NCBI GenBank assembly: GCA_036835125.1
Contig: DAITMO010000001.1
Coordinates: forward strand, 702,216-766,215
Direction: 5' to 3'
DNA from: Patescibacteria group bacterium
Lineage (GTDB): Bacteria > Patescibacteriota > Microgenomatia > UBA8517
DNA: 64,000 bases
The notes below the pieces were generated by a model. It worked only from the letters and a program-made list of their open reading frames with translations, was not told the origin of the DNA and ran no database searches. The stretch's first letter is position 1. The number at the start of each line of letters is the position of its first letter. Shown in pieces: positions 31,992 through 55,607 of the stretch. The position numbers and the translations under genes were made by a program.

Positions 31992-32658
31992 CGGTTACTT
32001 TTTGCGATAAAGATGATCCTCCAACCCCTGCTCCTATTTCATACCTACCGTCTGTTCCTGCAGCAAGATCAAATATGGCTCTACCCATTGAATCTGTTGT
32101 TGCCTGAACCGAAGTCACAGCCAGTAAATCTACTCCCGATAAACTAACAACCTTCCCTGAAACACCAGCTCCAGTGCCATCTAAAATGAATACCGTAACT
32201 CTAATTTTTTCTACATTACCAGTAGCTGCACTCAAAGGAGACGCAAACATATATGAGTTTTCAATTGCAACAGAAGTAGGTGCACTTGTAGGAGTAGCTG
32301 TACTTACTGGAATAGCAATTGTAGAAGAAGTTGTACTAGTTTCAGATGTTGTAGCACTTGTTGTTGCAACTTCAGGAGTTGAGGTCGGTAAAACTGACAC
32401 TAGAGGCTTAGGCGATGATATATTACCCAATTCTCCCGGTAACAATTCCGAAGCAAAATTAAAAAAAGATGTTCTTGTTCCAAGTAAGTAAATTGAAAGA
32501 ACAAGAAATCCTGATAAAAGTAATAGTAGAATAACAGATAATAGTATCGAACGCTTCTTTGGCTTTTCTTCCTTCATACTTGATTGGCCACTACTCACAA
32601 TGTTATATTCGGTAAAAGGATCCACTGGCATATAAGTATAAATTGGCACATTTAGCAC
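31978..32658 (-). CDS. Membrane-anchored Thr/Ser-rich protein with C-terminal Ig-like/carboxypeptidase-regulatory-like beta domain
   Basis: 226 aa; N-terminal TM, TS-rich linker, C-terminal beta-rich domain (VTVFILDGTGAGVSGKVVSLSG...); convergent, 14-bp overlap with upstream gene. Confidence 0.4.
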   Translation of the reverse strand: MLNVPIYTYMPVDPFTEYNIVSSGQSSMKEEKPKKRSILLSVILLLLLSGFLVLSIYLLGTRTSFFNFASELLPGELGNISSPKPLVSVLPTSTPEVATTSATTSETSTTSSTIAIPVSTATPTSAPTSVAIENSYMFASPLSAATGNVEKIRVTVFILDGTGAGVSGKVVSLSGVDLLAVTSVQATTDSMGRAIFDLAAGTDGRYEIGAGVGGSSLSQKVTVTFD

Positions 32659-42100: not shown

Positions 42101-42870
42101 CAAATTGGGACGTTTTAACCTCAACCAATTCAGCTAGTCTTGACACTCTTGCAATAAGCGATCTATTTGTAACAAATCAGATAGCAGCAAACTCTCTTTC
42201 TGTAACAAATTCTTTAGCTCTTGGAATAGACATGATGTTTGATTCATCAATTGACGAAACAACCAATTTACCAGGAAACAGCATCAATACTCTTTCATCC
42301 CCTCTTAAAATTCAATCTCTTGCCATGGCTCCAGTTGAAATTATGGCAGGGATGTTTACGATAGACACAACAGGAAACGTAAGAATAACAGGCAACCTGG
42401 CAGTTGGAGGAGACTTGAATGTGGGAGGAAGGGTTAACTCATCAGGACTCACACTACATAATAATAGTGAGGATTCTTCCCCATCAGATCTTCTTACTTT
42501 ACAGGCAATAGATGGAGTAAGTGTTGCAACAATTGACTCATCAGGAAGTGCCTCATTTAATCAAATCTCAACCAAAGGACTTGTAATTGCAGGTGCAGTT
42601 GAGGCTACAAATTCTGCTCTTGTAAATGGAGTGATAACAACAAATGCAACAGCGGGATCCGGAACAATTCCAGAGGGAATATCCGAAATAACAATCAAAA
42701 ATCCAAATGTGACAGACTACACACTTGTATATGTCACACCAACCTCCTCTACCTACAACTATGTACTATATGTAAAGAGTAAAAAGAATGGAGAGTTTAA
42801 AGTAGGATTCACAAATGGAATACCAATAGATGTGAACTTTAACTGGTGGATTGTAAAAGTGGGACAATAA
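33172..42870 (+). CDS. Giant (3232 aa) membrane-anchored surface protein: two N-terminal tyrosine-recombinase core-binding (SAM-like) domains, one TM, then a huge repeat-rich ectodomain (tail-fibre-like repeats, glycine-rich block)
   Basis: Uninterrupted 9.7 kb ORF; residues about 10-100 and 130-215 match the XerD/phage-integrase N-terminal pattern (S..TIKNY.SDI..F..W and RRLSTLRNFSRFL); TM at about 290-312; repeated GIGTxxPxxKL.V.GN motifs; about 310-aa tandem units; (GGN)n block at nt 39511-40260. Confidence 0.85.
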   Translation: MFTTADKTIKKFIENLILQGKSKVSIKNYKSDIGHFLAWITLKLKTLGTYIEEASEITPFVSGDIFNEYKNYMVDNKVKIKTANRRLSTLRNFSRFLHSEGLTDFDFMQGIQNLGIGEGKTVQKIATDIIGNFRDSLITQKVSPNTIKNYASDIRSFIDWAGKKSIAKIGSNHIKTYREEVLKSSTASTFDRKVSSLKKFFDWARIEGHTDGNPIEDFLKEEAKTIQVKLGKIEKERKAISQSYNSFQARIIAKLAVKPRLQKFFYHLFYTRPEWYKKYHTLPIASYFNYGILILLMSALGFGVYNQFFKATSDSLAYPTTLTKAGRYLSFQGRLTSKLGNPITTATNLDFKLYDASTSGSLLWDSNTCSITPDTDGIFSTLLGDSCGDEIGSDVFSENAEVWLGVTVGLDAEATPRVQIATVAYALNSETLQGYPASESATANTVPVMNSSGQLVLAYSSPKIQSTSGTFAIEGQATTISTANTSNGSITINPDGTGTLNLTFEGAAPGGSANGFVNATNANLTSGALYYGEVASDASGYNLIQLASGSTPTDKFTISSAGNLVAAGTINGLGVSSGTISSGTWNGTAIGTQYGGTGQNWSAVSQGSLPYFNGAGTMATLDPATSGYVLTTQGAGANPTWTDPTTLGTNYWQLANHVLTPANALDYDLAVGGNSTASAKFQVFAGSGNILTSGTASISGNLTLGNGSALQSAYGPLTLNYKSGADAYTAGLTLTDSGYIGIGTVNPVAKVSIVSPGDSGINMGGYFGSGYGAISLNNTADSTNYNLLSGNSSTDNSLYLNRTSGGSIHFREANGTSQMIIASGGNVGIGTVSPTAKLDVNGNLNISGYATASASLALGNTIAAEGPGHLNMSGNLTALGTINGLSVSSGTISSGTWNGTAIGTQYGGTGADNSAVAQYSIPYYSAIGTLGGAVSPGTAGYVLSTNGAGGAPTWIEMSAVSGDNYWQLNNKILSPANSTFDLVIGGTATGSAFQVFGQELAAGNVQKITSSGVTTGDVLSLNSTALTTGSLLYLANNTANNAYLIKAQAGSSLTDRMTLDSSGYLKVYDTSGSKYVQIRHDGTNGQISASSGNLELGSGAGNMVIGDSSNAVNIHFGYTAAPVAIEGEAGTVINFTQAGDITPAADATYDLGASGTAWANIYGTSVYQGAYQVCDVSGNCLGTAGGSKWKSNYGAISPFTDDLDVLIGSSATTSAKFAFINVGEGLPTASISGTTANVNTFLTGEGNLGVTNMAHLTLGGATTGQVDVSNDLNLADSKGLKINNNSILTSTALGSTVVGSSLTSVGALTAGSIGGSFGSINVGNTITGTTINGTTGINTGASAGTQRIDASGNLTNIGTTQFHGVTYTWPAADAANPGYVLASNGSGGLSWEAPSGGGGSWTIGSNGVIYPNNFTADVVIGATATTSAKFAFMNVLTGTPTASISGSTANVATFVDGNGNISTTNRQDLVIGNSTAYDTTGNILLNPNGTGRVGIGTTSPTYTLDVVGNIGLDQYLYHNDDTNTYLNFEADRLRGYIGGEYLLDLYEGTQDYVKLGDNGDVDINLNNMLFVEGSSGKVGIGTITPTNRLSIVATSANSTGMAALLIDQYEDQDIFTASASGQTKMKLANDGTLSLYNATSSITNTAGDITLDAASDFISFSGDSLGNILDLSITGVLNAGTSAGGVYNSLAGASDSPASTAIASGNDLFVGGDIEIKGGLYLTGHNIFNVVSGVSTGTITFAADPTLVNSYNALSYGSWLVNNSVNDGIASLMVNQAKAGDVFTASVSGTTKFTIHNDGSLYLAGSASAPTANTTAGTIYFDTDTVTGSGTTGSLFIRGEDDAWHRLAMDMTSYASSSANIANGSYVEVAHNQDTNDISITGWFYDTISSTWKNISEFTHSIIQNLQNQFDEEGNSKIRTTTKLTNIELSQSINTGTGSDGAITVSGSVSINDTDLISDRSCSDGGDAVNYSITTLTPTTATLSTTPSAGCLSPGDEVLIINLQGTSTATTNVGKYETLRISSISTDTITFTTAKTNFYGDNATDDTNIGTASGNQRVMLQRVPNYTNVTVNSSINFYPTAWNGTKGGVMFFRATGTVSVSGTIHANSMGYRGGGTATTGGNGGESFCNLDAGGDGGYTSAGTAGICGGGGGGGSPGSTAGGAGSTNYGGAGGGGGGHTGAGGTGWGGGGGAGAGYGTAGSFGYGRSNGTSGSTNASGNGGTGASNGGSGGGGGGTYVNSSKLLLGSGGGSGGKGGYGTGYGGAGGQGGGVVYIASSSISISGSVNAGGQNGTNGANSTGSGGGGGGGSGGSVYILANTASLGTNLVSSSGGSGGAGGVQAEAGFAGGAGGYGVSYIYYTTSYTGSANSPTPTYTVQPYYPYGIYHSAPIATTNAVSLDKIRWEASPSAYGKIEFQTRTGNSTDPTDGSWEAWKPAVDGTNYTLLQSADTHTDWTGTNATVSDGSVTRDIDQFEDEDEGTAGNNTKFVNTTAASGYAEATITSADISSFDYLTAWVYATASGNTVKFGFGESTATEQEETITIDATSTWQKIYWDLSDVPTASRDGVTKLRFTNLNNPWNTIHIDNIKAEKAMTTSTGTNITSTPNNYIQYRAIFTTTNTSYYPKLYNVNINYNDGYKIIQADTNNVRLYNYTGSTQNLRLDAVVFGADLAEWYTVDDGSITSGDVVAITGQMDENGVPILRKSQGARDPNLIGVISTNAGQTLGIKADNRRLLALAGRVPVKIDPSSPAIKAGDGITSGNTPGMAKKAMFGDMVIGKAAQDWNPGQGNTLFIIVSSSGSTSSYLASIEDFQIIKNLSTGVWEVTSKSTGEVLKAAGAFGDMIAANIKAGSIIAKNIVTDRFETAIATIQDLTAPKITTSLISPIPNEKDITIQIGNASESGKLIVQNSEGQEVSSIDSQGNATFSGEIASNNLQVANEATISGTLYADEIKSKSLDEIKSLLAEVETDQNLLKEAANWDVLTSTNSASLDTLAISDLFVTNQIAANSLSVTNSLALGIDMMFDSSIDETTNLPGNSINTLSSPLKIQSLAMAPVEIMAGMFTIDTTGNVRITGNLAVGGDLNVGGRVNSSGLTLHNNSEDSSPSDLLTLQAIDGVSVATIDSSGSASFNQISTKGLVIAGAVEATNSALVNGVITTNATAGSGTIPEGISEITIKNPNVTDYTLVYVTPTSSTYNYVLYVKSKKNGEFKVGFTNGIPIDVNFNWWIVKVGQ
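34873..36750 (+). repeat. Tandem duplication of an about 310-aa (936-nt) unit inside the giant gene
   Basis: GTINGL[GS]VSSGTISSGTWNGTAIGTQYGGTG... recurs at residues about 567 and 879; identical 40-nt stretch ggaatggaacagcaattggaactcagtatggtggtacagg at 34925-34964 and 35861-35900. Confidence 0.7.
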
Positions 42871-42887
42871 TATAAAAGATATCTCTT

Positions 42888-43676
42888 ATGGAAGAAAAAA
42901 ACAAAACCAACAAAAAAAATATATTAATTCTTTCTTTACTAGCAGTTTTGATAATTGCAGGTATTTTTGTGCTCATTACTCTTCTTCCCAAAAATAAGGA
43001 AAAAAATGTATATCTAGTTGCTAACACCAACAAAACTGAATACTTAGTAGGTGAAACAGTAAAAATAGAAATGGCAAAAGTAGATAAAGATGGAAATGCA
43101 GATTGTGATGCAAATTTGAAATTAACAATAAATGGAATAAAAAAGAAAGATATTATTAAATCTTCTGCTTGTAAGTTGGGTATCAACATAATTCCTGACT
43201 ATTTATTTAGCTTCAAACCTGACAAAACAGGAACTTTTAAGATTAAATTAAAAGATCTTGATACTAAAGTTACTACAACGAGATATTTTGATGTAGTTAA
43301 TGAAAAGAGTCTTGATATTACAAGAAAAATGGATTTGAGAATAAATCTAAAAAAAGGAAACACATTTCCTGTAAGAATACATGTAAAAGCAAATAAAGAT
43401 TATTCAGGAGAAATATCAGATCTTGTTCCTAACGGAATAACAATTAAATGGCAGGGAGAAGCAAAAGTAGAGGGAAATAAAATTATCTGGCATGTAAACC
43501 TAAAAGCTGGAGAAACAAAAGATTTTATATATGAATATTCAGTAAATAATCCAATTCCCACCACCTATTCATTTGGAGAAGACAATGAATGGACAGTTAT
43601 AACAACAAACCAAGAACAAAAAATGGAAATAAAAATTCAAGAAATTATAAAAAAACTAAATGAAAAAAATAATTAA
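42888..43676 (+). CDS. Membrane-anchored hypothetical protein (N-terminal TM, Lys-rich ectodomain)
   Basis: 262 aa ORF; TM ILILSLLAVLIIAGIFVLITLL; A7 and A8 tracts in the first 12 codons. Confidence 0.45.
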   Translation: MEEKNKTNKKNILILSLLAVLIIAGIFVLITLLPKNKEKNVYLVANTNKTEYLVGETVKIEMAKVDKDGNADCDANLKLTINGIKKKDIIKSSACKLGINIIPDYLFSFKPDKTGTFKIKLKDLDTKVTTTRYFDVVNEKSLDITRKMDLRINLKKGNTFPVRIHVKANKDYSGEISDLVPNGITIKWQGEAKVEGNKIIWHVNLKAGETKDFIYEYSVNNPIPTTYSFGEDNEWTVITTNQEQKMEIKIQEIIKKLNEKNN

Positions 43677-45303
43677 ACCATTACTAATATTTTTTGCTGT
43701 TGTTGTGTTTTTCACAATAAAAACAAATACTGTTCATGCAGGTAGTTGTAGCTCTCAAACTGATGGAAACTGGAGTTCAGGAAGCACATGGACTGGTACA
43801 TGTGCTGGATCTGGAGGAATACCAACTTCAGGAGACCTTGTTCAAATTACAGAGGGAACAATTGTTACAGTAGACAGTACAGCAGTAGCGTCAAATGTAA
43901 CAATCAATGAAACTGCAACACTTACTTTTGCTGACAATTCAACTCTGGTGATATCAGGTTTTTCCTTTATTGATTACCCAGGATTGATAAATAATGGCAC
44001 TTTCACCTCAGGATCAAATTCAACTGTGGTTGTTAATGATGAAATTGCTATGAATTTAATAGCTGGCGAAATAACCTTTGATAACTTGTTAATAATTGCT
44101 GGTATTACAGTACTATTTTCCCCCATAACAATTAATGGGGATTTAATGATAATAGAAACAGGTTTATTAGTTGATAACGGTAACCAAATAACAGGCAACA
44201 GTACTGGGGAATTAGTCATTACAACAGCAACTTTTGAAGGAGGACTGTTTATAGATTCTGGAATGTTTGCGAATGAATCCGAAACAACTGTTTCACACTT
44301 CCCCACGCTATTTACCAGAGAAAACATATACATTGAGCCTGGAAGTATTATTGGATACGCCTCTGAAAGCACACAGGTAATATCGAGCGTTCCAATTTAT
44401 GGAACTATTTATTTAATGGGGCCAAATAAAACAAATGAAGATGATATCACTCTAACAGGATCATGGGTAATTGACACTGAAAGTGGTGGTGCAGAATTTA
44501 CTGCAGGAGAAGGAACCACCGTATATTTTGCAGGAGGAGATGAAAGTGAACAAGTAATACAAGGAAATAACACATTCTATAATCTAACAGCTACAACAAC
44601 AGATAATTCTACAGGACGAAGTATTTTGTTTGAAGGAGGTTCAACCACCACTGTAACCGGAACTTTTACAATGGAGGGAGAAGCTGGAAAAGTTCTCACT
44701 CTCGGATCAACTGATGAAACAGCATGGACAATTACACCTACATCAACTTCAGTACAATACCTTTCTGTTTCCGATTCCACAAATACTAATGGAACCATAT
44801 GTGCCCCCTATTCAACTGATGGAGGAGGAAATACTGGATGGAGTTTTGAGGAAGGAGCTTGTAATACAACACCAAATACACCAACTCTGGATTTGCCAAG
44901 CAATAGTGCCACCAATCAATCAATCAACCCATCACTTAAAACAACATCAACAGACCCTAATAGTGACTATCTACACTATAAAATCATTCTTTGTGAAGAC
45001 TCAGAAATGTCAGTAAATTGCCAAACATTTGATCAAACCAGCTCTCAAACTGGATGGAGTGGACAAGATGCAGAAAGTGAAACAGCATATGCTTCAGGAA
45101 CACAAGCTGTTTATACACTGCAAACCGAACTCTCTTATTCAAAAATATATTATTGGAAAAGTTATGCAATAGATCCAGGAGGAACAAACGCATGGAGCGA
45201 AACTCAAACTACTCCCTATTCATTTACAACAGGAGCGTCTCAAAATACAGTTTTGAAATATAAAGGAGGGCTTAAGATCTTTGGGAACGTAATCGTGAAA
45301 TAA
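43660..45303 (+). CDS. Secreted beta-helix-like adhesin-type protein with C-terminal FN3-like module shared with the downstream giant protein
   Basis: 547 aa; signal peptide; parallel-beta-helix-like repeats (GDLVQITEGTIVTVDSTAVASNVTI...); C-terminal TPNTPTLDLPSNSATNQ...CQTFDQTSSQTGWSGQD...YYWKSYAIDPGG module. Confidence 0.6.
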   Translation: MKKIIKPLLIFFAVVVFFTIKTNTVHAGSCSSQTDGNWSSGSTWTGTCAGSGGIPTSGDLVQITEGTIVTVDSTAVASNVTINETATLTFADNSTLVISGFSFIDYPGLINNGTFTSGSNSTVVVNDEIAMNLIAGEITFDNLLIIAGITVLFSPITINGDLMIIETGLLVDNGNQITGNSTGELVITTATFEGGLFIDSGMFANESETTVSHFPTLFTRENIYIEPGSIIGYASESTQVISSVPIYGTIYLMGPNKTNEDDITLTGSWVIDTESGGAEFTAGEGTTVYFAGGDESEQVIQGNNTFYNLTATTTDNSTGRSILFEGGSTTTVTGTFTMEGEAGKVLTLGSTDETAWTITPTSTSVQYLSVSDSTNTNGTICAPYSTDGGGNTGWSFEEGACNTTPNTPTLDLPSNSATNQSINPSLKTTSTDPNSDYLHYKIILCEDSEMSVNCQTFDQTSSQTGWSGQDAESETAYASGTQAVYTLQTELSYSKIYYWKSYAIDPGGTNAWSETQTTPYSFTTGASQNTVLKYKGGLKIFGNVIVK

Positions 45304-45305
45304 AT

Positions 45306-48300
45306 ATGTCAAGAATTGATTTAGGAAACCATATTAGTACATACTTAAAACTAGTTATAAAAATGACTACATCAAAACTGTCCAAAATAGTCAGAAAGAT
45401 AAATTACTATATCAAATATTTTGTGGTTAATAGCCACATATTATCTAGAAAAGCAAAAAGAAAACTAAATCACATCCCCCCACTTAGTAAACTTCCACAA
45501 ACAATTAAAGAGGAATTAATTGTTTTTTTTAAAAAGTTCACTATCTTTGTTAAAAAGTTACCTAAATTTATAAGAAACTTTCCACCCTTAGTTAAAAGGA
45601 AAGTTCCAACATATATAAAATTAATAAAAAAACATAAAAATGGTATTGCAATCACAATAACAGCAATCCCTGTAGCAGTTATCTGGGGACTACTATTATA
45701 TAAATGGATTACCACTCCCCAGCCCGCAATAGTAACTAATTCAAAAAATAGTGACTATCATTTTCAAGGAAAATCAAAACTCTATAAATTTAGTATTGGG
45801 GATACTAAAACAAATGAACCAAAAGTTGAATTCTCTCTTTCCAAAGAAGGAAATAAAAAAATTATCTTCTACCCTGCAAGCGGTAACACAGGAAGGGATA
45901 AACCGGAAGAAAAAGGAAACAAAATTACTTTTAAAGATGTGTATGGAAATACTGACATAGTCTATACACCAATCAAAAACGGAATCAAAGAGGAAATAAT
46001 AGTTAAAAAACCAAATGAATATCATGTCTATCCATTTTTCTTAGAATTAGAAGGGGTAAACATAAATCCAACATTCAACATTTCAAATGGAGTCTTCTAT
46101 GACAGTGATGGCAACTATCTATTTAACTTTGAAAAACCATTTGCGATAGATGCAAAAGGAAACAGAACTGACAATGTTGGAATATCCATAAAAACAGATT
46201 CAAACAGCGGCAAACTAGTAGCCCTTCTAACAGTAGATAAAAACTGGATTAGTGACCCTGCCCGCACCTACCCTATTACAATTGATCCAACAATAGTACA
46301 TGACACCAATGCAGAACTTGATACCGGACAATTAAACAGAATTCTTTCAAAAACAGCTCCCACATCCCCCGCAACTGGAGGAACCATCACATATAAAGAT
46401 GGCTATACAATTCATACTTTTACGTCATCTGGAACTTTTACACCCACAACATCGATGAATGTAGAAATATTAGTTGTGGGTGGTGGTGGAGGTGGAAATG
46501 ATGGATCTGGTGGAGGTGGTGGTGGAGGTGGTGGTGGAGTTGTATATCAACCTTTATATGCTGTTACTGCACAAGAATACACCGTTACGGTTGGAGATGG
46601 TGGTGCCAGAAATACAAGTGGAAATAATTCTGTTTTTGACACTATTACTGCAGTTGGAGGAGGTAAAGGAGGAGGATATGCCGCAGCGGGTTCAGCTGGT
46701 GGTTCTGGAGGAGGATCAGGACGTGATACAACCTCAGCTGCCGGAGGAAGTGGAACAGCTGGCCAAGGATATAACGGAGGTAGAGCTACAGCAGCAAGTT
46801 ATGGTTCAGCTGGTGGTGGAGGTGGTGCAGGACAAGTTGGTTATAATGGAGGAACAGATTCAGGTACTCTTTCTGGAACCTACTCCAGGGGTGGAGATGG
46901 TATTGGATATTCAATTTCAGGAACTATAACATATTATGGTGGTGGAGGTGGGGGTTCTTGGCATTCAGGAACAGTCATGTCTTCAGGTGGTCTAGGAGGA
47001 GGAGGTAAAGGAGGAGGATATCTTAATTCGGGTGGATACAATGGTACTGCGGGTACTGCAAATACTGGTGGTGGAGGTGGGGCTGCAGATTCTAGAAGTG
47101 GAACGGCAGGAGCTGGTGGTTCCGGTATTATTATTATTCGCTATCCAACCTTCCCCACTCTTGAAACATATTATCAAGAACTTTCAACAGATCCATATAC
47201 TGTTGGTCTTTGGCATATGAATGAAACTTCTGGCACCACAACCGTATCTGATTCATCAGGAAATTCTAACACAGGAACGTCTGTATCTAGTACTAATGTA
47301 ACTACTGGAGTTTTAGGAAATTCCAGAAGTTTTAATGGGAGTAGCGATTCTATATCCACTTCTCTAAATGGTCTTCCTTCAAGCACTAATACTGTTACAG
47401 TTGAATTTTGGGCATATATGGCTTCTGGACTTACTAATTACCAAGCCATACAAGCAAGTGCCGATGATGTAGCCAATAGATTTAATATTCACTTAAATTG
47501 GGGAGGAACTACTTATTGGGATTTTGGTGCATATGATGGTGGTGGAAGACTTACTGCAACATGTGATAGTAGCTTATTAAACAAATGGGTGCATTGGGCA
47601 TTTGTTTCTGAAGGAGGTGTTGGTCAAAAAATATATATTAATGGAGTGTTAGTTGCTAGTGACAACACTACATCAACTTTTACTAAAGGAGCAAAAACAC
47701 TATATATCGGTAGGGATACAACAACGAATTTCTTTAAAGGAATGATTGATGAATTTAAAATTAGTAATAATGCTCGTACTCCAGAAGAAATAAAGCTCAA
47801 CGCCTCCCGTCGTCCCTATTCTACCTATACATCCGATGTAATTGATCTAACAAATGTTGCCTCATGGAATTCTTTATACTGGAATGGTCTTGGTTTCACA
47901 ACGGCAGATGGAGAAACTGCAACTGCTTCAGCAACAAGCTCCCTAGTAGCCCAATGGAATTTTAATGAAACTTCTGGAACAACAGCAGCTTCAGGAGGAA
48001 CTTGTGGTACCTCTTGTAATGGAACACTAACAAGCTTTGCCTCTACAGGTTCCCAAGATGCAGCAGCAGGAACAGGCTGGACTTCTAACAATAAACGTTG
48101 GGGTGCAGGAGCTTTAATGTTTGATGGAAGTAACGACTATATGAGTGTATCAAGCTCAGGAATTATTGATCCAACCTCTGAATACACAATAGAATCATGG
48201 ATCAAACCCACATCTACTGGTCCTTATACAATTTATGGACAAGGAAATACAGGAAACAATACAGTTATGCTTGTGTTGAATGTTTATAACGGCAACTTAT

Positions 48301-51300
48301 TCTACAACATCAGAAATGATGCTGGAACAGAAATAAGCAACTCAGGATCATCAATACCTATTGGGCAATGGTCTCATGTTGTTTTAACAAAAAGTGGTTC
48401 AACATATTCACTCTTTGTCAACGGAAAGATGACATCTTTTACTAGTACAACTCCATCAGCACCATATACATTCAATACATCAACAATTGGTCTATACAAT
48501 CGTTTGTCTCCTGCTAATTATTTCAATGGTACCATTGATTCCACCCGTATTTATAACCGTGCCCTCACTACCACTGAAATTCTTAGTAACTACAACTCCT
48601 CCCGTATTGAACTCCAAACCAGAGTTGGTGCCTCAACCGATCCTAACGATGGAACGTGGGAAGCATGGCGCCCAACAACTTCTGAAACAGTAATTGATAA
48701 TATGGACAACCCTCTTGATTGGGCCACTCCTTCTGCAACAATTTGGTCGGCAGGAGCTCTTGTTGCAACCTCTTCTTCCACTTTTCCTTTAGCAGAAGGA
48801 ACAAAAAGTATGAAGGTCCAAACTGGACAAAACACTTCCATGACTAGTGTTGTTGGTATGTGGCACCTGGATGAAACCGGAGGAACTGGAGCATATTTGA
48901 AGGATTCAACAGCAAATGCAAATAACGGCACTCCGACAGGGACTACCATTGTCAATGGAATTTCTAATAAAGCCAGAAAGTTTACCGGTGCAACTAATTA
49001 TGTTCATATCGGAAGTACTGCTCTACTTGCTAATTCATCAACTAATTCAATTGAAGCTTGGGTATATTTGACCACCACTGGAGTTAATCAATCTATTTAC
49101 GGTGAAGGTAATTCTGCTGGAGCACATTACTATTTTTTGTATGTGACCAGTGGTAACGTTGCTAGATTTGATATGAGTAACGGAACACAATGTAATGCTG
49201 TTGGTTCTACGACACTTGCTGCTAATAAATGGTATCACCTCGCTGGTGTTAGAAATGCAGGAAATTGTTACGTTTATGTCAACGGCGTCCAAGACGGGAC
49301 AGGAGCGGGAAATCCTGGTGCCTTTACATTAAACTCTGTTGATATCGGAGATTTATCGAATAATGGTTCCCATTTTTATTTTAATGGATACATCGACGAA
49401 GTACGTGGTAGTAATATTGCTCGTTCTGCCGAAGAAATTGCAGAAAGTTACCGTATGGGCAGAGACCATAGAATAAGTAAGACTGTTTCTTCAACAGATT
49501 TATCCTCCTCCACCAAACTCCCCTTCTATGTTGCGAGCGACCGCTTGGGAACTTTTATGCAAATGACATATGGAGAGTCTAATTTTGCAAACTATGAATC
49601 TGACGCCTATACATCTGGCTTTTGGCACATGGATGAACAATCGGGTTCAGGTGCCTATATAAAAGATGCCTCAGGTACAGGAAACAATGGAACACTAACT
49701 GGAACAACGTTTACGCAGGGACAAATTGGAAAAGGAAGATATTTTAATGGTACAAGCAGTGACTATTTAACTGTTCCAAATACTCTTGATACTCCACTAA
49801 AAACAGGAACTTTCAGTGTAAGTGGTTGGGTTAAAGCCTCAGCTTTTACAAACGAGGTAGTTTTGATAAACAGAGGCATTGTATCGTCTGGAGGCAATTA
49901 CTATGGAATGGGGCTGTATTTTACAAGTACCGGATTAACGTTTAATAGATATATTGGAAATACAACAACCACCGCTGTTACTTATTCTTTTACTCCAACT
50001 GTTGGTACGTGGTATTTTGCTGCAGTAACTTATGATGTAAGTACAGGAGCTACAAATCTATATCTTAATGGGCAACTTGTTGCGTCAGGCACCCTATCGA
50101 CCAGCAATGTCTCCTATCATGCAAGCTACGATCTGGGGTATGCCATAGGAGCCTTGAGAAGAAATATTTCTGACAGATATTCAAACGCAATTATAGACGA
50201 AGTTCGTATTGATAATACCGTCCGTACTGCTGACCAAATCCGCCAAGCATATGAAGTAGGAAAAAGAACCCACAACATAACAATTGATTTTAAAGCAAAA
50301 CTAGATTCAGGAAATTTAATTGCTGACTCTTCAGATAAAAGCTTCATTGTTGATGAAACTGCCTATGGCTCCACCTACATGGCAAGCCATTTATTCTTGG
50401 GAGATAAAATTATTGTTAAAGAAAACTATGATGGAACAGAATATATAGCTCAAGGAACAGTGAGTGCTGTAAACATGACTACAGGAGCAGTTAGTGTGAC
50501 TTCCTGGGATACAGGAAGTACTTTCCCTTCAGGGGGATTCACGGTAAACGCAACAGTATTTAAATGGCAAAGAGAATATGTGAGCTTGACAGGTTCACTT
50601 TCTACTCATAGGGATGCTGTAACAAAGCTTACTTATAAAATAAACGATGGATCTATCGGAGCAAACATCTGGCTTGATGACTTGCGAAGCACAACCGGAT
50701 ATTTAGATACACCAGAAGGCTCTACTATTACATCTTCAATTGGAAATAGATATTTCCAATATCGAGCAATCATTGATTCCAGTGATCCTGCAGTTTCTGC
50801 CTCACTAACATCAGTAACACTAGATTATGTAAGTAACTCTGCACCAAACACCCCAACACTTGATAGCCCATCAGATACAGCAACAAACCAAAGTCTAACT
50901 CCACAATTAAAGACCACAACAACTGACAGTGATTCTGATTATGTACGATATAAAATATTACTATGTAAAGATTCTGATATGAGTGTCTCATGTCAAACAT
51001 TTGATCAAACTAGCTCTCAAACAGGATGGAGTGGGCAAAACACTGAAAGTAACACTGCTTATACTTCTGGAACACAAGCTACATATACTATACAAAGTGC
51101 TCTCGATACAGGTACAACGTATTATTGGAAATCATATTCAATTGACCCTGCAGGAATAAATATGTGGAGTTCGACTCAGAGCTCACCATATTCTTTTGCA
51201 ACAACTCGCGCCCCTTCTGCCCCAACTTCCCCAGAAACCCAGGGGCAAACAAATCCAACAGGACTAACAACCACCACACCATACTTTTCAGCAATTCATA

Positions 51301-52262
51301 ACGATTTAGATGGAGATAGTGCAAATTACTACCAAATACTAGTCAACACAGCTTCAGATTTTTCTGGAACATCTATGTGGGATAGTGGAAAAACTGGTAT
51401 GACGACAACAACAAACACTTCAAGATCCCCAAATCTTACATATGCAGGAAATTCTCTTTCCTTGGGCCAAACATATTATTGGAAAATAAAATTCTGGGAT
51501 ACAATCGGAGTTGAGGGAGAGTATTCTAACACTGCTCAATTTTCTCTAAATGGAGTCCCTGATATTCCAACTCTTGATTTGCCAACAAACGGAGCAACAG
51601 GACAAATTTTTGTTCCAGTTCTTAAAACAACAACATCAGATGACGATTCTGACTATCTAAGATATAAAATCCAGATTTGTTCAAACATAGGAATGACTAC
51701 TGATTGTCAAACATTTGATCAAACTAGCTCTCAAACAGGCTGGAGTGGGCAAAACACTGAAAGTAACACTGCTTATACTTCTGGAACACAAGCTACATAT
51801 ACTATACAAAGTGCACTCGAAGTGGGAACAACTTATTTTTGGAGATCATATGCAACAGATCCTGGTGGAACTAATACTTGGAGTTCTACTCAATCCTCAC
51901 CATATAGTTTTTCAACACTTACTGCTCCTATTGCCGCTTCTCAGTGTCGTATATTGGAAAGCAGGGATGATAGCAGCTTAACTTTAGTTTGGACAGACAA
52001 TGCTACAAATGAAGATTATTATGAAGTTCAAAGATCAGTTGATGGGGGTGCGTTTGCCGTACTTGAAACTGCAATCGCTGCAAATACAACAAGTAATGTA
52101 GACACTTCTGTGTCTGATGGTCACACTTATCAATATAAAGTGGCTCCTTATTTTTCTACTGGACCAGCCTATTCATCGTGGTGTACAACTTCTACTCTTA
52201 ATTTACAACTTGGAACATTTTCCATCAAAGGACTTGATTTGAAAGGATTAATATTAAGATGA
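45306..52262 (+). CDS. Giant (2318 aa) membrane-anchored surface protein: basic cytoplasmic N-terminus, TM, Gly-rich block, four LamG/ConA-like lectin domains, FN3-like modules
   Basis: Uninterrupted 7.0 kb ORF starting 3 nt after the upstream stop; TM IAITITAIPVAVIWGLLLY; (GGN)n block nt 46474-47150; four LamG-like repeats each starting G[LMF]WH[ML][ND]E[TQ][SG]G and ending with an I[DS]E[FV][KR]I-type strand; three FN3-like modules with a conserved Cys pair; classic FN3 at the C-terminus. Confidence 0.85.
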   Translation: MSRIDLGNHISTYLKLVIKMTTSKLSKIVRKINYYIKYFVVNSHILSRKAKRKLNHIPPLSKLPQTIKEELIVFFKKFTIFVKKLPKFIRNFPPLVKRKVPTYIKLIKKHKNGIAITITAIPVAVIWGLLLYKWITTPQPAIVTNSKNSDYHFQGKSKLYKFSIGDTKTNEPKVEFSLSKEGNKKIIFYPASGNTGRDKPEEKGNKITFKDVYGNTDIVYTPIKNGIKEEIIVKKPNEYHVYPFFLELEGVNINPTFNISNGVFYDSDGNYLFNFEKPFAIDAKGNRTDNVGISIKTDSNSGKLVALLTVDKNWISDPARTYPITIDPTIVHDTNAELDTGQLNRILSKTAPTSPATGGTITYKDGYTIHTFTSSGTFTPTTSMNVEILVVGGGGGGNDGSGGGGGGGGGGVVYQPLYAVTAQEYTVTVGDGGARNTSGNNSVFDTITAVGGGKGGGYAAAGSAGGSGGGSGRDTTSAAGGSGTAGQGYNGGRATAASYGSAGGGGGAGQVGYNGGTDSGTLSGTYSRGGDGIGYSISGTITYYGGGGGGSWHSGTVMSSGGLGGGGKGGGYLNSGGYNGTAGTANTGGGGGAADSRSGTAGAGGSGIIIIRYPTFPTLETYYQELSTDPYTVGLWHMNETSGTTTVSDSSGNSNTGTSVSSTNVTTGVLGNSRSFNGSSDSISTSLNGLPSSTNTVTVEFWAYMASGLTNYQAIQASADDVANRFNIHLNWGGTTYWDFGAYDGGGRLTATCDSSLLNKWVHWAFVSEGGVGQKIYINGVLVASDNTTSTFTKGAKTLYIGRDTTTNFFKGMIDEFKISNNARTPEEIKLNASRRPYSTYTSDVIDLTNVASWNSLYWNGLGFTTADGETATASATSSLVAQWNFNETSGTTAASGGTCGTSCNGTLTSFASTGSQDAAAGTGWTSNNKRWGAGALMFDGSNDYMSVSSSGIIDPTSEYTIESWIKPTSTGPYTIYGQGNTGNNTVMLVLNVYNGNLFYNIRNDAGTEISNSGSSIPIGQWSHVVLTKSGSTYSLFVNGKMTSFTSTTPSAPYTFNTSTIGLYNRLSPANYFNGTIDSTRIYNRALTTTEILSNYNSSRIELQTRVGASTDPNDGTWEAWRPTTSETVIDNMDNPLDWATPSATIWSAGALVATSSSTFPLAEGTKSMKVQTGQNTSMTSVVGMWHLDETGGTGAYLKDSTANANNGTPTGTTIVNGISNKARKFTGATNYVHIGSTALLANSSTNSIEAWVYLTTTGVNQSIYGEGNSAGAHYYFLYVTSGNVARFDMSNGTQCNAVGSTTLAANKWYHLAGVRNAGNCYVYVNGVQDGTGAGNPGAFTLNSVDIGDLSNNGSHFYFNGYIDEVRGSNIARSAEEIAESYRMGRDHRISKTVSSTDLSSSTKLPFYVASDRLGTFMQMTYGESNFANYESDAYTSGFWHMDEQSGSGAYIKDASGTGNNGTLTGTTFTQGQIGKGRYFNGTSSDYLTVPNTLDTPLKTGTFSVSGWVKASAFTNEVVLINRGIVSSGGNYYGMGLYFTSTGLTFNRYIGNTTTTAVTYSFTPTVGTWYFAAVTYDVSTGATNLYLNGQLVASGTLSTSNVSYHASYDLGYAIGALRRNISDRYSNAIIDEVRIDNTVRTADQIRQAYEVGKRTHNITIDFKAKLDSGNLIADSSDKSFIVDETAYGSTYMASHLFLGDKIIVKENYDGTEYIAQGTVSAVNMTTGAVSVTSWDTGSTFPSGGFTVNATVFKWQREYVSLTGSLSTHRDAVTKLTYKINDGSIGANIWLDDLRSTTGYLDTPEGSTITSSIGNRYFQYRAIIDSSDPAVSASLTSVTLDYVSNSAPNTPTLDSPSDTATNQSLTPQLKTTTTDSDSDYVRYKILLCKDSDMSVSCQTFDQTSSQTGWSGQNTESNTAYTSGTQATYTIQSALDTGTTYYWKSYSIDPAGINMWSSTQSSPYSFATTRAPSAPTSPETQGQTNPTGLTTTTPYFSAIHNDLDGDSANYYQILVNTASDFSGTSMWDSGKTGMTTTTNTSRSPNLTYAGNSLSLGQTYYWKIKFWDTIGVEGEYSNTAQFSLNGVPDIPTLDLPTNGATGQIFVPVLKTTTSDDDSDYLRYKIQICSNIGMTTDCQTFDQTSSQTGWSGQNTESNTAYTSGTQATYTIQSALEVGTTYFWRSYATDPGGTNTWSSTQSSPYSFSTLTAPIAASQCRILESRDDSSLTLVWTDNATNEDYYEVQRSVDGGAFAVLETAIAANTTSNVDTSVSDGHTYQYKVAPYFSTGPAYSSWCTTSTLNLQLGTFSIKGLDLKGLILR
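50994..51102 (+). repeat. 109-nt near-identical intragenic direct repeat, copy 1 (second copy at 51708-51816)
   Basis: caaacatttgatcaaactagctctcaaacagg[a/c]tggagtgggcaaaacactgaaagtaacactgcttatacttctggaacacaagctacatatactatacaaagtgc; a single mismatch over about 109 nt; a more diverged third copy at about 45016 in the upstream gene. Confidence 0.8.
51708..51816 (+). repeat. 109-nt near-identical intragenic direct repeat, copy 2
   Basis: See copy 1; 714 nt (238 codons, in frame) apart. Confidence 0.8.
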
Positions 52263-52334: not shown

Positions 52335-54278
52335 ATGCAAAAAGCTCTAGACAAAATACAAAAATTTATAATTATCTTGGGAGTTGTTTTATTCCCTGTT
52401 TTTATACTTCCAGGATTTTCTTCACCATACTTTGTTCCAAAAGAGATATTTCTTGCCGGAATTGTGTCTATTGCTTTAATTGCCGGACTTCTTAAATCTA
52501 TTATTAATGGTGAAATAAAATTCTCATACGGTAAGTTTGATTTTGCATTAACTCTACTAACTCTGGTTTATATACTTTCTGCCATTATCAAAACTCCCAA
52601 TAAAATGGAGGCATTTTTTTACCCAGGCACAGCTACTTTTGCAATACTTGCATTAGTTTTATATTTACTTATTAATCAGTTTACAAAGTATAGTAAAAGG
52701 AACACTTTAGTAGCAGTCTTTGTGTCTGGAATTCTTCTTTCCATATTTATGCTCTTTACAGAACTTAAAGTCTTTTCTTTCATCCCCCAACTACCAAGTT
52801 TTATGAGTAGTATTAATTTCAATTCAATGGGTTCTACTATTGGTTCTATTGTTTTTCTATTAGCAGTACTTTCTATTGGAATTATCTATGTTATTAAAGA
52901 AAAAGATATCGTCAAAAAAGTATTTTTTAGTATTTCCAGCTTGATAATAGTTGCAACAATAGTACTAACAGGAACCAAACTATTTACTCAAAAATCTCAG
53001 GAATTAATACTCCCCTCTTGGCAAACAAGTTGGATAATAACAATAGAATCGTTTAAAAACAGTCCCATATTCGGAGTTGGGCCAGGTAACTATATTACAG
53101 CTTTTAACATATATAGACCTCTCTCATACAACCAAACAGATTTATGGCAAACAAAATTCTCAAGCGCAAACAATTTCTATTTCACTCTATTTACAGAACT
53201 TGGTTTAGCAGGCACTATTGCTATTATCATTCTTTTAATTGCAGTTTATAGAAAAATATCCTTTGATATGACAAAAAAGAAGTCTAATTGGGAAATAGTT
53301 TCTTTAATCATCCTTCTTTTAGCACTTTTTTTCATACCAATAGCACCAGCTCTTTTGGTTCTATTAATGATTCTTCTTTCAATTTTCTCAAGTTCTGAAG
53401 AGAAGTATGTTGTAATTGCAACAAATAAAATATCCTCTCTTATTGTTTCTGCTCCTGTCATTATTGCAATAATTCTAACAGCATTCTTTGGAGCCAAGGC
53501 AGTTGCTGCAGAAATGAATTATAAGAAATCCCTTGATGCACTAACCAAAAATGATGCCAGAGGAACATATGATTATATGACCAAGGCTGCTACCCAAAAC
53601 CCATACGTTGACCGCTATCGCGCTTCGCTTGCTCAAGTTAACCTTGCTCTGGCAAATTCTATAGCAACCAAAGAAGAACTTACAGATATTGACCGCTCAA
53701 CTATAAGCCAACTTGTTCAACAAGCAATATCTGAAGGGAAAGCAGCAGTTACCTTAAATATTGGAAGGTCTGCTAATTGGGAAATTTTGGCACAAATCTA
53801 TAGAAGTATTCTTGCTTTTGCTCAAGGAGCTGATCAGTTTGCAATCCAAACTTTTTCCCAAGCCGTGGCATTAGACCCAATAAATCCTGAACTTAGAGTT
53901 TCTCTTGGTGGTGTCTATTATGCTTTGGGAGACTATGACAATGCCATAACTTCTTTTCAACTCGCTGTTGCTGCAAAGAATAACCTTGCCAATGCGCATT
54001 ACAATTTAGCTGCAGCCTATGCAGCCAAGAAAGACTATGATAAAGCAATAAAAGAGATGAATACTGTTCTTTCTTTAGTAGATGAAAACTCTGAAGATTA
54101 TAAAACTGCACAAACAACTTTATTAGAATACCAAACACAAAAACCTGTAAATACAGAAAATCAGATTTCTGAAAATTCTTCTGCTACCTTGACCCAACCA
54201 GAAACAGTTGAGGAACCTATAATCAAACCACCAATTGAGCTACCTGAGGAAGCTACCCCACCCGCTGTTACTGAATAA
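52335..54278 (+). CDS. O-antigen ligase (Wzy_C) family membrane protein with C-terminal TPR repeats; candidate O-oligosaccharyltransferase
   Basis: 647 aa; about 10-12 TM with a large periplasmic loop (Wzy_C-like, NSPIFGVGPGNY); C-terminal TPR-like repeats (AHYNLAAAYAAKKDYDKAIKEM). Confidence 0.65.
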   Translation: MQKALDKIQKFIIILGVVLFPVFILPGFSSPYFVPKEIFLAGIVSIALIAGLLKSIINGEIKFSYGKFDFALTLLTLVYILSAIIKTPNKMEAFFYPGTATFAILALVLYLLINQFTKYSKRNTLVAVFVSGILLSIFMLFTELKVFSFIPQLPSFMSSINFNSMGSTIGSIVFLLAVLSIGIIYVIKEKDIVKKVFFSISSLIIVATIVLTGTKLFTQKSQELILPSWQTSWIITIESFKNSPIFGVGPGNYITAFNIYRPLSYNQTDLWQTKFSSANNFYFTLFTELGLAGTIAIIILLIAVYRKISFDMTKKKSNWEIVSLIILLLALFFIPIAPALLVLLMILLSIFSSSEEKYVVIATNKISSLIVSAPVIIAIILTAFFGAKAVAAEMNYKKSLDALTKNDARGTYDYMTKAATQNPYVDRYRASLAQVNLALANSIATKEELTDIDRSTISQLVQQAISEGKAAVTLNIGRSANWEILAQIYRSILAFAQGADQFAIQTFSQAVALDPINPELRVSLGGVYYALGDYDNAITSFQLAVAAKNNLANAHYNLAAAYAAKKDYDKAIKEMNTVLSLVDENSEDYKTAQTTLLEYQTQKPVNTENQISENSSATLTQPETVEEPIIKPPIELPEEATPPAVTE

Positions 54279-54327: not shown

Positions 54328-54398
54328 GGGCTGTTAGTACAGTGGTAATATACCTCATTCGCATTGAGGAGACGCCGGTTCGATTCCGACACAGTCCA
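54328..54398 (+). tRNA. tRNA-Ala (anticodon CGC)
   Basis: Acceptor GGGCTGT/ACAGTCC with G3:U70 Ala identity pair, anticodon stem CCTCA/TGAGG with loop TTCGCAT, T loop TTCGATT, discriminator A; one C-A mismatch in the T stem; CCA not encoded. Confidence 0.7.
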
Positions 54399-54515: not shown

Positions 54516-55607
54516 TTACCTCAAATAGCTCAAAGGGTTAACCCTCACCCCATTTAGATATATTTCAAAGTGTAAATGTGGTCCAGTTGAACGGCCTGTT
54601 GAACCCATTCTCCCTATTGCCTGCCCTCTTCCGATGGTTTGACCTGATATAACCATTATCTGAGAAAGATGTCCATAGCGTGTTCTATAACCGTTTCCAT
54701 GATCAATCATTACCATGTTTCCATATCCAGTTGTATCCCAGCCTGCATAGACAACTCTCCCTGAATCTGCAGCAACAATTGTTGGAAGAGAACGATTCGC
54801 AATATCGATTCCAGGGTGGTACCAAGAGAAATATTGAGAGAGCGTTCCTTGTGCGGGCCAGACAAATATTCCAGATGCACTAACCGCTCCAGCACTTGGA
54901 GTCATTTGACGAACTCTAGATGTTGTAGTCGCAGTAGGCATAACTCCATCAGGAACAATTACAGTTTGACCTATTGCTAACTCAAACGTTTCGTCGTTTG
55001 TAAAAGTATTGAAAGGAAAATCGATTATGGCTTGAGCTTCAGAATCATACTTTTTGGCAATTGAATAAACAGTGTCTCCCTTAATAACTGTATGAGCAAC
55101 ACCAGTAACAGGAAGTATTTTCAAAGTCTGACCAATTTTAATTTTATCTCCACTAAGATTATTTGCCCATCGTATTGTTTCTAATGATATTCCAAATTTA
55201 TTAGCAATTGTAGCAACTGTATCTCCACTTTGTACTTTATATTCAACAACGCTGTCTCGTACCTTGTTTGAAACCAGAGTACCAATTCCAGGATCCTCTG
55301 TTGAGGCCGAAACTATACCAGGTGCCGCTGAAATCGCCCAAGGATTAAGAGACTTGCCAGGAAACTCCTGTGCTAATAAAGGAGCCAACATTACACCTAA
55401 TGCCGCAATAGCTGCCATTCCGGAGTGACTCAATGTTCTTGAAAGCTTTCCTCTTTTTCTATAAAGAGCTGTCACAACAATTCCTTTTCTTTCTTCAATC
55501 TTTAAAAAACTAATATGAAGACTTTTCAATATAAAGTTTCCTAATTCAAAAAAGAAAGTTTTTAACTCTTCCCAAATATCTATAAATATTTCAAAGTTTT
55601 TTTCCAT
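54516..55607 (-). CDS. LysM-domain M23 family metallopeptidase (peptidoglycan hydrolase)
   Basis: 363 aa; two LysM repeats (YKVQSGDTVATIANKFGISLETI, HTVIKGDTVYSIAKKY), C-terminal M23 motifs HPGIDIA and GPHLHFEI. Confidence 0.85.
   Translation of the reverse strand: MEKNFEIFIDIWEELKTFFFELGNFILKSLHISFLKIEERKGIVVTALYRKRGKLSRTLSHSGMAAIAALGVMLAPLLAQEFPGKSLNPWAISAAPGIVSASTEDPGIGTLVSNKVRDSVVEYKVQSGDTVATIANKFGISLETIRWANNLSGDKIKIGQTLKILPVTGVAHTVIKGDTVYSIAKKYDSEAQAIIDFPFNTFTNDETFELAIGQTVIVPDGVMPTATTTSRVRQMTPSAGAVSASGIFVWPAQGTLSQYFSWYHPGIDIANRSLPTIVAADSGRVVYAGWDTTGYGNMVMIDHGNGYRTRYGHLSQIMVISGQTIGRGQAIGRMGSTGRSTGPHLHFEIYLNGVRVNPLSYLR

Follow-up and report, generated by a model that had tools for sequence, protein, structure and literature searches.

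Giant 2 (G2), a protein of 2318 residues, is encoded in a 64,000-nucleotide stretch of DNA from a Patescibacteria group bacterium (contig DAITMO010000001.1, positions 702,216 to 766,215, hereafter the window). We found that G2 carries the lectin (concanavalin A (ConA)/LamG) fold four times, as confirmed by hidden Markov model (HMM) matches together with predicted structure, and that it belongs to a widespread protein family in which a conserved scaffold is combined with modules that vary. The role that we favor, with confidence that is no better than even, is that of an N-terminally anchored multivalent surface adhesin directed towards another cell, with glycans as the probable ligands.

The four lectin-fold units were located by Pfam scans of the whole protein and then of G2 piece by piece. 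The whole-protein scan placed Laminin_G_3 (PF13385) in four stretches (E 5e-93), and four separate matches of 81-96 bits were obtained, about three times the gathering score of 27.6 bits. An earlier note on this DNA, made from the sequence alone, had proposed four consecutive LamG units at about nucleotides 47205-50260, and the Pfam check that it suggested returned Laminin_G_3 four times (E 1e-22 to 2e-27) in agreement with that position. The gene and its four units are as follows.

45306..52262, + strand: whole G2 gene, 2318 residues plus stop, ATG start, from the list of open reading frames (ORFs) and their translations
47202..47801, + strand: LamG unit 1, residues 633-832, Pfam core 677-830, Laminin_G_3 E 5.3e-26, with GLWHMNETSG at residue 636 and IDEFKI at 814
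47955..48599, + strand: LamG unit 2, residues 884-1098, Pfam core 940-1092, Laminin_G_3 E 2.2e-27
48846..49460, + strand: LamG unit 3, residues 1181-1385, Pfam core 1228-1379, Laminin_G_3 E 4.3e-26, also phrog_3545
49614..50270, + strand: LamG unit 4, residues 1437-1655, Pfam core 1484-1645, Laminin_G_3 E 1.1e-22, also Toxin_R_bind_N E 7.7e-10

Weaker matches in the whole-protein scan were to ConA-like relatives, namely Toxin_R_bind_N, Laminin_G_1/2 and a sialidase N-terminal domain. The start motif G[LMF]WH[ML][ND]E, which had been ascribed to every unit, is present in units 1, 3 and 4 (residues 636, 1186 and 1440) and is replaced in unit 2 by AQWNFNETSG; the end strands of units 1 to 4 read IDEFKI, IDSTRI, IDEVRG and IDEVRI. 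The start motif lies about 40 residues ahead of the Pfam core, an offset that fits an additional N-terminal jelly-roll strand. An AlphaFold2 (AF2) model of residues 833-1840 (31 sequences) had a predicted local distance difference test (pLDDT) score of 76.9 and a predicted template modeling (pTM) score of 0.68, and when this model was compared with the PDB by Foldseek the best match was alpha-neurexin LNS2-6 (E 8e-18), with further matches to laminin LG, the lectin-like domain of tetanus/botulinum Hc and the lectin domains of trans-sialidases. The neurexin LNS, laminin LG and tetanus Hc matches span E 1e-11 to 8e-18, and the two-sheet jelly roll expected of the fold is predicted by the model. 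The same list also holds GH43 arabinanase and sialidase lectin domains. Both kinds of evidence on which the lectin reading of the earlier note had been made to depend, HMM matches and structure matches, were thus obtained.

Tandem LamG jelly rolls on one chain also form the extracellular binding platforms of alpha-neurexin (LNS1-6) and the laminin alpha chain (LG1-5). The likeness of G2 to these proteins is one of fold only, since identity is about 10%, EGF spacers are absent, and both the scaffold and the organism differ. Among prokaryotes, TafC of the haloarchaeal Tat-fimbriae has a surface-exposed LamG domain proposed to be adhesive (PMC11821415), and DPANN archaea secrete LamG-containing proteins that expose LamG on the surface (PMC9563170). 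G2 is not a member of the TafC family (NF052521), scoring 73 bits against a cutoff of 410 through its LamG2 part only (E 2e-20), and it differs from TafC in having neither a pilin-like donor-strand domain nor a Tat signal.

The G2 ORF is real, and an identical protein is present in a metagenome assembly in ENA. The window, of about 35% guanine plus cytosine (GC), contains tRNAs, Rho and LeuRS and is therefore part of a cellular chromosome. The N-terminus of G2 consists of the following two segments.

45306..45638, + strand: basic N-terminal tail, residues 1-111, presumed cytoplasmic, 28 K/R against 3 D/E, sequence unconserved
45639..45713, + strand: single transmembrane or signal-anchor segment, residues 112-136, Kyte-Doolittle 19-mer mean 2.26

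A Kyte-Doolittle scan of the whole protein found no second hydrophobic segment, so that the membrane anchor postulated earlier is borne out as a single hydrophobic segment behind a basic tail. According to the positive-inside rule the basic flank of a membrane segment stays in the cytoplasm, and the remaining ~2180 residues of G2 would therefore be extracellular. The sequence thus supports an N-terminal membrane anchor with type-II (N-in, C-out) topology. An N-terminal hydrophobic segment preceded by a basic tail was present in 110 of 120 homologues, where it starts at a median residue of 16.5; the homologues' tails are far shorter than the 111 residues of G2, and the true start codon of G2 may lie further downstream than the annotated ATG. 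G2 does not resemble a sortase-anchored Gram-positive adhesin, as its C-terminus, which reads ...LQLGTFSIKGLDLKGLILR, has no LPXTG and no hydrophobic segment. SLH, S-layer and other known wall-anchoring Pfam domains were likewise absent from the whole protein and from its pieces.

A word-indexed search recovered 934 relatives of G2 at E<=1e-10. Those with a named source come from the Patescibacteria group, Dojkabacteria/WS6, Gottesmanbacteria and Woesebacteria, and the title 'LamG domain-containing protein' is borne by several; the weakest relative listed (P0120) is by name a Lentisphaerae DUF5123 protein matched over 4% of the query. Among species-representative genomes a scan gave 71 loci, nearly all in Patescibacteria metagenome-assembled genomes (MAGs); the closest was 62% identical, so that the genome of the window itself is absent from this set. 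The family-specific scaffold formed by the segments X and FA described below matched 967 cluster representatives of 1.84 billion at E<=1e-3. Judged from these searches, the family hardly occurs outside Patescibacteria MAGs, and it is widespread and single-locus in many of them. Some of the locus records (L001, L008, L010, L023, L027 and others), which contain close homologues in the same synteny, are titled 'uncultured Pseudomonadales', 'Gammaproteobacteria' or, in one case, 'TM6', and by their gene content these look like mislabelled Patescibacteria bins. Two loci (L002 and L005) are paralogues adjoining on one contig.

It is clear that G2 belongs to an existing family that is annotated in the databases yet uncharacterised, and that its domains fall in known Pfam families. 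The 'LamG domain-containing proteins' of Patescibacteria (P0013, P0061, P0077, P0080 and P0110) have the same backbone, anchor and neighbours at 33-62% identity, and related records come from Dojkabacteria/WS6, Gottesman-, Collier-, Roizman- and Woesebacteria. G2 differs from these proteins in having a glycine-rich cassette directly after the N-terminal domain (NTD), no Fibrinogen_C- or Pentaxin-type extras and the unusually long tail noted above; its locus differs in two extra genes, p262 and p547, which lie between G2 and an upstream giant gene. A multi-LamG surface protein in a genome of the candidate phyla radiation (CPR) is expected rather than surprising. We found no description of the G2 family in the CPR/Patescibacteria literature, although the searchable literature is incomplete and this is absence of evidence.

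To describe how the family is built, 15 segments of G2 were placed on 60 homologues, and identities are given as medians over 59 homologues. The backbone is fixed in the order NTD, LamG1, S1, LamG2, S2, LamG3, L34, LamG4, X, FA, FB, (FC), FD, and homologues carry variable inserts behind S2 and behind L34. The segments S1, L34, X, FA and FC have median identities of 55-61% as against 36-41% for the LamG units and NTD, meaning that divergence is slower in the scaffold than in the LamG units and that most of the variation falls in the putative binding modules. The two domains that lie between the anchor and the first LamG unit of G2 are as follows.

45714..46421, + strand: N-terminal beta-rich domain (NTD), residues 137-372, conserved, all-beta in the AF2 model with pLDDT mostly 82-95
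46422..47144, + strand: Gly_rich_2 domain (TNF-like sandwich plus glycine-rich lattice), residues 373-613, Pfam PF21722 E 1.2e-21

The NTD is present in 58 of the 59 homologues with a median identity of 36%, and residues 137-372 of the window copy have no Pfam match. The Gly_rich_2 match reaches 78.3 bits against a gathering score of 24.3 and covers profile positions 1-225 of 226, and the same residues match phrog_2295 (E 1e-50). In the AF2 model of residues 137-640 (29 sequences, pLDDT 85) the glycine-rich part has a pLDDT of about 90 with very few DSSP elements, a combination that suggests a glycine lattice. The sole Foldseek hit of this model in the PDB at E<=1e-3 was the fibre protein gp24 of cyanophage Pam3 (7ypx_A, E 8e-5, 22% identity); the ligand-binding region of ALK (7nx4) stood at rank 19 of the same list with a non-significant E of 0.19. 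Among viral models, 181 matched the glycine-rich domain at E<=1e-3, many of them with 35-46% identity and a root-mean-square deviation of about 3 Å, and many bear the name 'glycine-rich domain-containing protein' and come from cyanophages, pelagiphages, haloviruses and prasinoviruses. In Pam3 gp24 the TNF-like plus glycine-rich unit is the distal fibre tip, for which receptor binding was proposed from the structure, and it resembles gp38 of Salmonella phage S16 and the ligand-binding region of ALK/LTK (PMC9608196). Phage fibre tips of this kind (PDB 7YPX) are accordingly the known systems that the glycine-rich module of G2 would most resemble, by its Gly_rich_2 match and its closest predicted fold. 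The phage version forms the C-terminal end of a trimeric fibre that has its own chaperone, whereas that of G2 is an internal cassette of a monomeric-looking cellular giant, and no chaperone-like gene was recognised among the neighbours of G2. A sequence search of the PDB with the glycine-rich domain returned antibody-linker artefacts only.

The position of the glycine-rich cassette varies among homologues, where it was found after NTD (as in G2), within LamG2, after S2 or before LamG4. The LamG2 alignment of 7 homologues is broken at G2 residues 920-923 by an insertion of ~245-265 residues, and in all 6 of these for which domain maps had been computed the insert is the glycine-rich cassette. 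The insertion point coincides with the loop at about residues 915-934 of LamG unit 2, which has low confidence (pLDDT) in the AF2 model. From these alignments the cassette was shown to move among fixed sites between orthologues of G2. Precomputed Pfam hits among the homologues further include Fibrinogen_C, Pentaxin, COLFI, 3keto-disac_hyd (PF06439) and GH130, several of which are lectin-type or beta-sandwich folds.

We also compared G2 with giant 1 (G1), its syntenic partner upstream. The scaffold segments between the LamG units of G2, and the region of G1 to which they correspond, are listed here.

47802..47954, + strand: scaffold segment S1, residues 833-883, proposed first strands of a split beta-sandwich, median 58% identity, strands predicted
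48600..48845, + strand: scaffold segment S2, residues 1099-1180 (ELQTRVGASTDPNDGTWEAWRP...), 48% identity to G1 2412-2461, E 3e-10
49461..49613, + strand: conserved linker L34, residues 1386-1436, in 59 of 59 homologues, median 55% identity
50271..50810, + strand: scaffold region X, residues 1656-1835, a small beta domain, the end of a domain like a carbohydrate-binding module (CBM) and the last sandwich strands (..RYFQYRAI..LTSVTLDY)
33172..42870, + strand: giant 1 (G1), 3232 residues
40312..41070, + strand: contiguous sandwich in G1, residues 2381-2633, with three collinear BLAST matches to G2

With composition-corrected BLAST, residues 837-859, 1100-1146 and 1745-1841 of G2 are collinear with G1 2381-2633, and in G2 the three pieces are parted, first by LamG2 and then by LamG3-L34-LamG4 together with part of X. 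The first of these alignments, S1 residues 837-859 with G1 2381-2403, is weak, with E 0.02 when G1 was the only sequence searched. Region X has a median identity of 59% to homologues and no Pfam match in the window copy; its residues 1745-1841 match G1 2541-2633 (32%, E 1e-5). These matches establish as homologous two of the modules that the earlier note had seen in both giants, the QTR..WEAW module, which lies in S2, and the YRAI module, which lies in X. From the collinearity, G2 appears to contain a beta-sandwich that includes a CBM-like subdomain and is split, with LamG domains nested in its loops, and the pTM of 0.68 over a multi-domain stretch of 1008 residues fits a compact nested assembly. 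Neither the spliced S1+S2+YRAI sequence nor its G1 counterpart gave a significant Pfam match, and the sandwich region of G1 found no match among PDB sequences.

A third supposed common element did not withstand scrutiny. Uncorrected BLAST gave a 480-residue glycine-rich block common to G1 and G2 (E 2e-29), which is compositional and disappeared under composition-based statistics, and the shuffling between the giants that the earlier note had proposed is not borne out for this block; shuffling is seen instead among the orthologues of G2. The part of G1 in question, at about residues 2110-2380 (window 39500-40310), is very glycine-rich, matches neither Gly_rich_2 nor any other Pfam or PHROG profile, and is not detectably related to Gly_rich_2.

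The C-terminal part of G2 comprises four modules.

50811..51221, + strand: Cys-pair module FA, residues 1836-1972, 67-74% identical to FC, invariant C52/C61
51222..51524, + strand: module FB, residues 1973-2073, Ig_Rha78A_N type, without Cys, Pfam PF25788 E 1.5e-11
51525..51935, + strand: Cys-pair module FC, residues 2074-2210, self-BLAST against FA E 3e-53
51936..52259, + strand: terminal FN3 domain FD, residues 2211-2318, with an invariant Cys pair of its own (C2214/C2293), family profile matching FN3

The CQTFDQTSSQTGWSGQ motif and the Cys pair are confined within G2 to FA and FC, and C52 and C61 are invariant across 20 sequences of the module. Three Cys-pair modules had been expected here; two were found, and the middle one is FB, which scores 44.9 bits against the Ig_Rha78A_N gathering score of 27.4 and which the whole-protein scan places at residues 1974-2080. 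The FA and FB families are related at the profile level only (hhalign probability 88%, E 3e-6), and hhalign found no relation between the Cys-pair module family and the terminal FN3 family. FA and FC of the window copy have no Pfam match, and the Cys-pair module profile had no significant match among PDB sequences.

The terminal domain had been described as a classic FN3. Residues 2211-2318 of the window copy do not match Pfam fn3 (PF00041) even at E<=1, and it is at the family level that the assignment is right, as judged by profile matching. A profile of 20 FD orthologues matched titin chains in the PDB at whole-sequence E values of 2.9e-14 and 7.8e-11, which sum many weak FN3 repeats with no single repeat passing, as well as a two-FN3con fusion (9ot8_A, 3.7e-7), single FN3con chains (1.5e-3 to 5.8e-3) and the Fn3-like 3mpc (3e-4), and 5 of the 20 orthologues match Pfam fn3 directly. 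An FN3/Ig-like nature of the C-terminal modules of G2 is supported by these sequence and profile matches. FD ends in a conserved tail of about 25 residues, L.L.LG.F...G....G...., which was seen in most of the listed orthologues and could be a docking or sorting signal. In the window the tail falls at 52197-52259, the C-terminal ~21 residues of G2, and it matches no recognised motif.

Neighbours of G2 in the window were searched by tblastn against the 71 fetched loci. The C-terminal region of G1 found a counterpart in 17 loci, and at least 12 of these have it within about 10 kb upstream of the G2 homologue; this match adjoins the start of the G2-homologue match in L001 and L011, and in other loci it is up to ~3 kb upstream. 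For Wzy_C/TPR, LysM-M23 and Rho there were hits in 15-17 loci each, with 16-17 for the first two, and most of these hits fell downstream of the G2 homologue. Other genomes share the gene order giant 1, giant 2, Wzy_C/TPR, LysM-M23, and p262 and p547 sit between the giants only in this lineage. The genes concerned are as follows.

42888-43676: p262, a gene for 262 residues between the giants
43660..45303, + strand: p547, 547 residues, secreted, with a signal-peptide-like N-terminus and a beta-helix-like middle
52335..54278, + strand: Wzy_C (O-antigen-ligase-like) plus TPR membrane protein, from Pfam, with tblastn hits in 17 loci
54328-54398: tRNA gene between the Wzy_C/TPR and LysM-M23 genes
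54516..55607, - strand: LysM-M23 peptidase (peptidoglycan hydrolase), a conserved neighbour

The protein p547 bears a third copy of the Cys-pair module, 69% identical to FA, and its C-terminal tail (..KGGLKIFGNVIVK) resembles that of G2.

We considered which function would account for these features. In the adhesin that we favor, the basic cytoplasmic tail and the one transmembrane helix would hold G2 in the membrane, and the conserved scaffold, made up of NTD, the split sandwich of S1, S2 and X, L34, the FN3/Ig-like modules and the terminal FN3 with its tail, would present the binding modules. The latter would be the four LamG/LNS lectin-fold domains and the one TNF-like/glycine-rich domain, which evolve faster than the scaffold. 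Specificity would presumably be adjusted as the LamG units diverge and as cassettes are moved or swapped at fixed loop sites, and the ligands would probably be surface glycans or glycoconjugates of another, possibly host, cell. We prefer this role because of the likeness of the Gly_rich_2 domain to phage fibre tips, the divergence of the LamG units, the lectin-type cassettes and the epibiotic habit of the phylum. Cultivated Patescibacteria have an epibiotic lifestyle (PMC10633639, PMC11665869), and transposon sequencing (Tn-seq) of a cultivated Saccharibacterium (Southlakia) showed that epibiotic growth requires surface proteins that bear lectin-like and FN3 domains (PMC10633639). Those proteins, SEML1_0890/0891, share with G2 a lifestyle at the level of the phylum and the use of glycan-binding surface modules, although their domain types (VCBS, dockerin) differ; we liken them in idea and claim no homology.

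Several points weigh against an adhesin. Laminin_G_3 is a fold-level superfamily that includes protein-binding and many non-lectin members. A conserved site for sugar or Ca was not identified in G2, although no binding-site analysis was made. The most conserved parts of G2, the FN3-like modules and the tail, sit distal to the membrane anchor, which is the opposite of a classical adhesin with stalk and tip and hints at a conserved docking partner for the C-terminus, which could be the cell's own envelope or G1. The Wzy_C/TPR and LysM-M23 neighbours are envelope-biogenesis genes and would equally fit a role in the self-envelope, and we know of no cultivated relative for this lineage.

An alternative is that G2 is a component of the cell's own envelope and serves either as a coat-like or S-layer-like scaffold or as a tether that links membrane, wall and outer layer, with lectin folds that bind the cell's own polysaccharides. 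We regard this as a real if doubtful possibility. It would explain the conserved synteny with a Wzy_C/TPR protein and a LysM-M23 peptidoglycan hydrolase, and the conserved FN3 and tail distal to the anchor, with the like tail on p547 suggesting a common docking signal; a widespread, single-locus family is as expected for a housekeeping envelope part, and the T/S/G/N-rich composition of G2 is found in many surface-layer proteins. However, Pfam scans of G2 detected neither SLH nor S-layer nor other cell-wall-binding domains, close relatives differ strongly in their LamG units and cassettes in a way more typical of a variable external target, and the glycine-rich module is of a phage-receptor-binding type with no known structural-coat role.

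It is quite unlikely, in our estimate, that G2 instead serves in substrate capture, as a surface CBM-like array that retains environmental or host polysaccharide for scavenging in the manner of the modules on glycoside hydrolases (GHs). ConA-like and LamG domains are often CBM-like in glycosidases, which agrees with the GH43 arabinanase and sialidase lectin domains in the Foldseek list, and FB matches the N-terminal Ig domain of the rhamnosidase Rha78A. The GH130 and 3keto-disac_hyd hits of some homologues point the same way, but these GH-type hits are sporadic and concern ConA-like or beta-sandwich folds; moreover, no catalytic domain was detected in G2 or its immediate neighbours, and a context of transporters or of the polysaccharide utilization locus (PUL) type was not present. 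A virion structural protein, such as a tail-fibre-like gene of an integrated phage, is very improbable, and we reject a prophage origin of G2 on context and synteny: despite matches to phrog_8510 (virion structural protein, E 2.6e-40) and, for the glycine-rich domain, phrog_2295, the 181 viral structural matches and the integrase SAM-like domains with which G1 starts, the locus lies amid housekeeping genes (Rho, LeuRS, tRNAs), many different Patescibacteria genomes show the same gene order, domains of capsid, terminase, tail or integrase catalytic type were not seen, G2 has an N-terminal membrane anchor, and there is no island-like GC boundary apart from the giants' own higher GC. The GC content of both giant genes (34000-42000 and 46000-52000) is ~0.39-0.41 as compared with ~0.32-0.37 elsewhere in the window, which probably reflects their Gly/Thr/Ser-rich composition and not a foreign origin.

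Returning to an adhesin, we suggest as a tentative and rather unlikely extension that giants 1 and 2 jointly form a Patescibacteria-wide host-attachment apparatus, in which a nested scaffold displays interchangeable cassettes at loop sites. The cassettes would then be glycine-rich domains of the fibre-tip type together with LamG, fibrinogen-like and pentraxin-like domains, their position and content would set the host range of the epibiont as tail-fibre tips do for phage, and there could be exchange of modules between the bacteria and phages that infect them. So far the cassette sites, the split sandwich and the pairing with G1 appear to be undescribed, and they are refinements and not a new kind of system. 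Host recognition and attachment by the ultrasmall Patescibacteria are largely obscure beyond a few Saccharibacteria, and for most classes no member is in culture. A large and widespread family that combines a conserved scaffold with variable lectin-fold modules and modules of the phage-receptor-binding type is thus a concrete candidate for host-specificity determinants; its cassette sites offer defined positions at which host-range correlates can be sought in metagenomes, and the individual domains of G2 are small enough to be expressed for binding assays.

Finally, some features of G1 and its surroundings were observed. Residues 1-302 of G1 (window 33172-34080) contain two N-terminal SAM-like (core-binding) domains of the XerC/XerD integrase type, and no integrase catalytic domain was seen in G1. 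A hydrophobic segment at about residues 282-302 is followed by ~2900 extracellular-looking residues, so that G1 presumably fuses a cytoplasmic domain of DNA-binding type to a giant surface protein, which is odd. The basic tail of G2 is weakly similar (E 0.02) to G1 residues 172-278, which immediately precede the hydrophobic segment of G1. N-termini like that of G1 also occur in loci L023 and L003. Just upstream of G1, an ORF of 226 residues on the - strand (31978-32658) carries a Big_1 bacterial Ig-like domain (E 1e-9).

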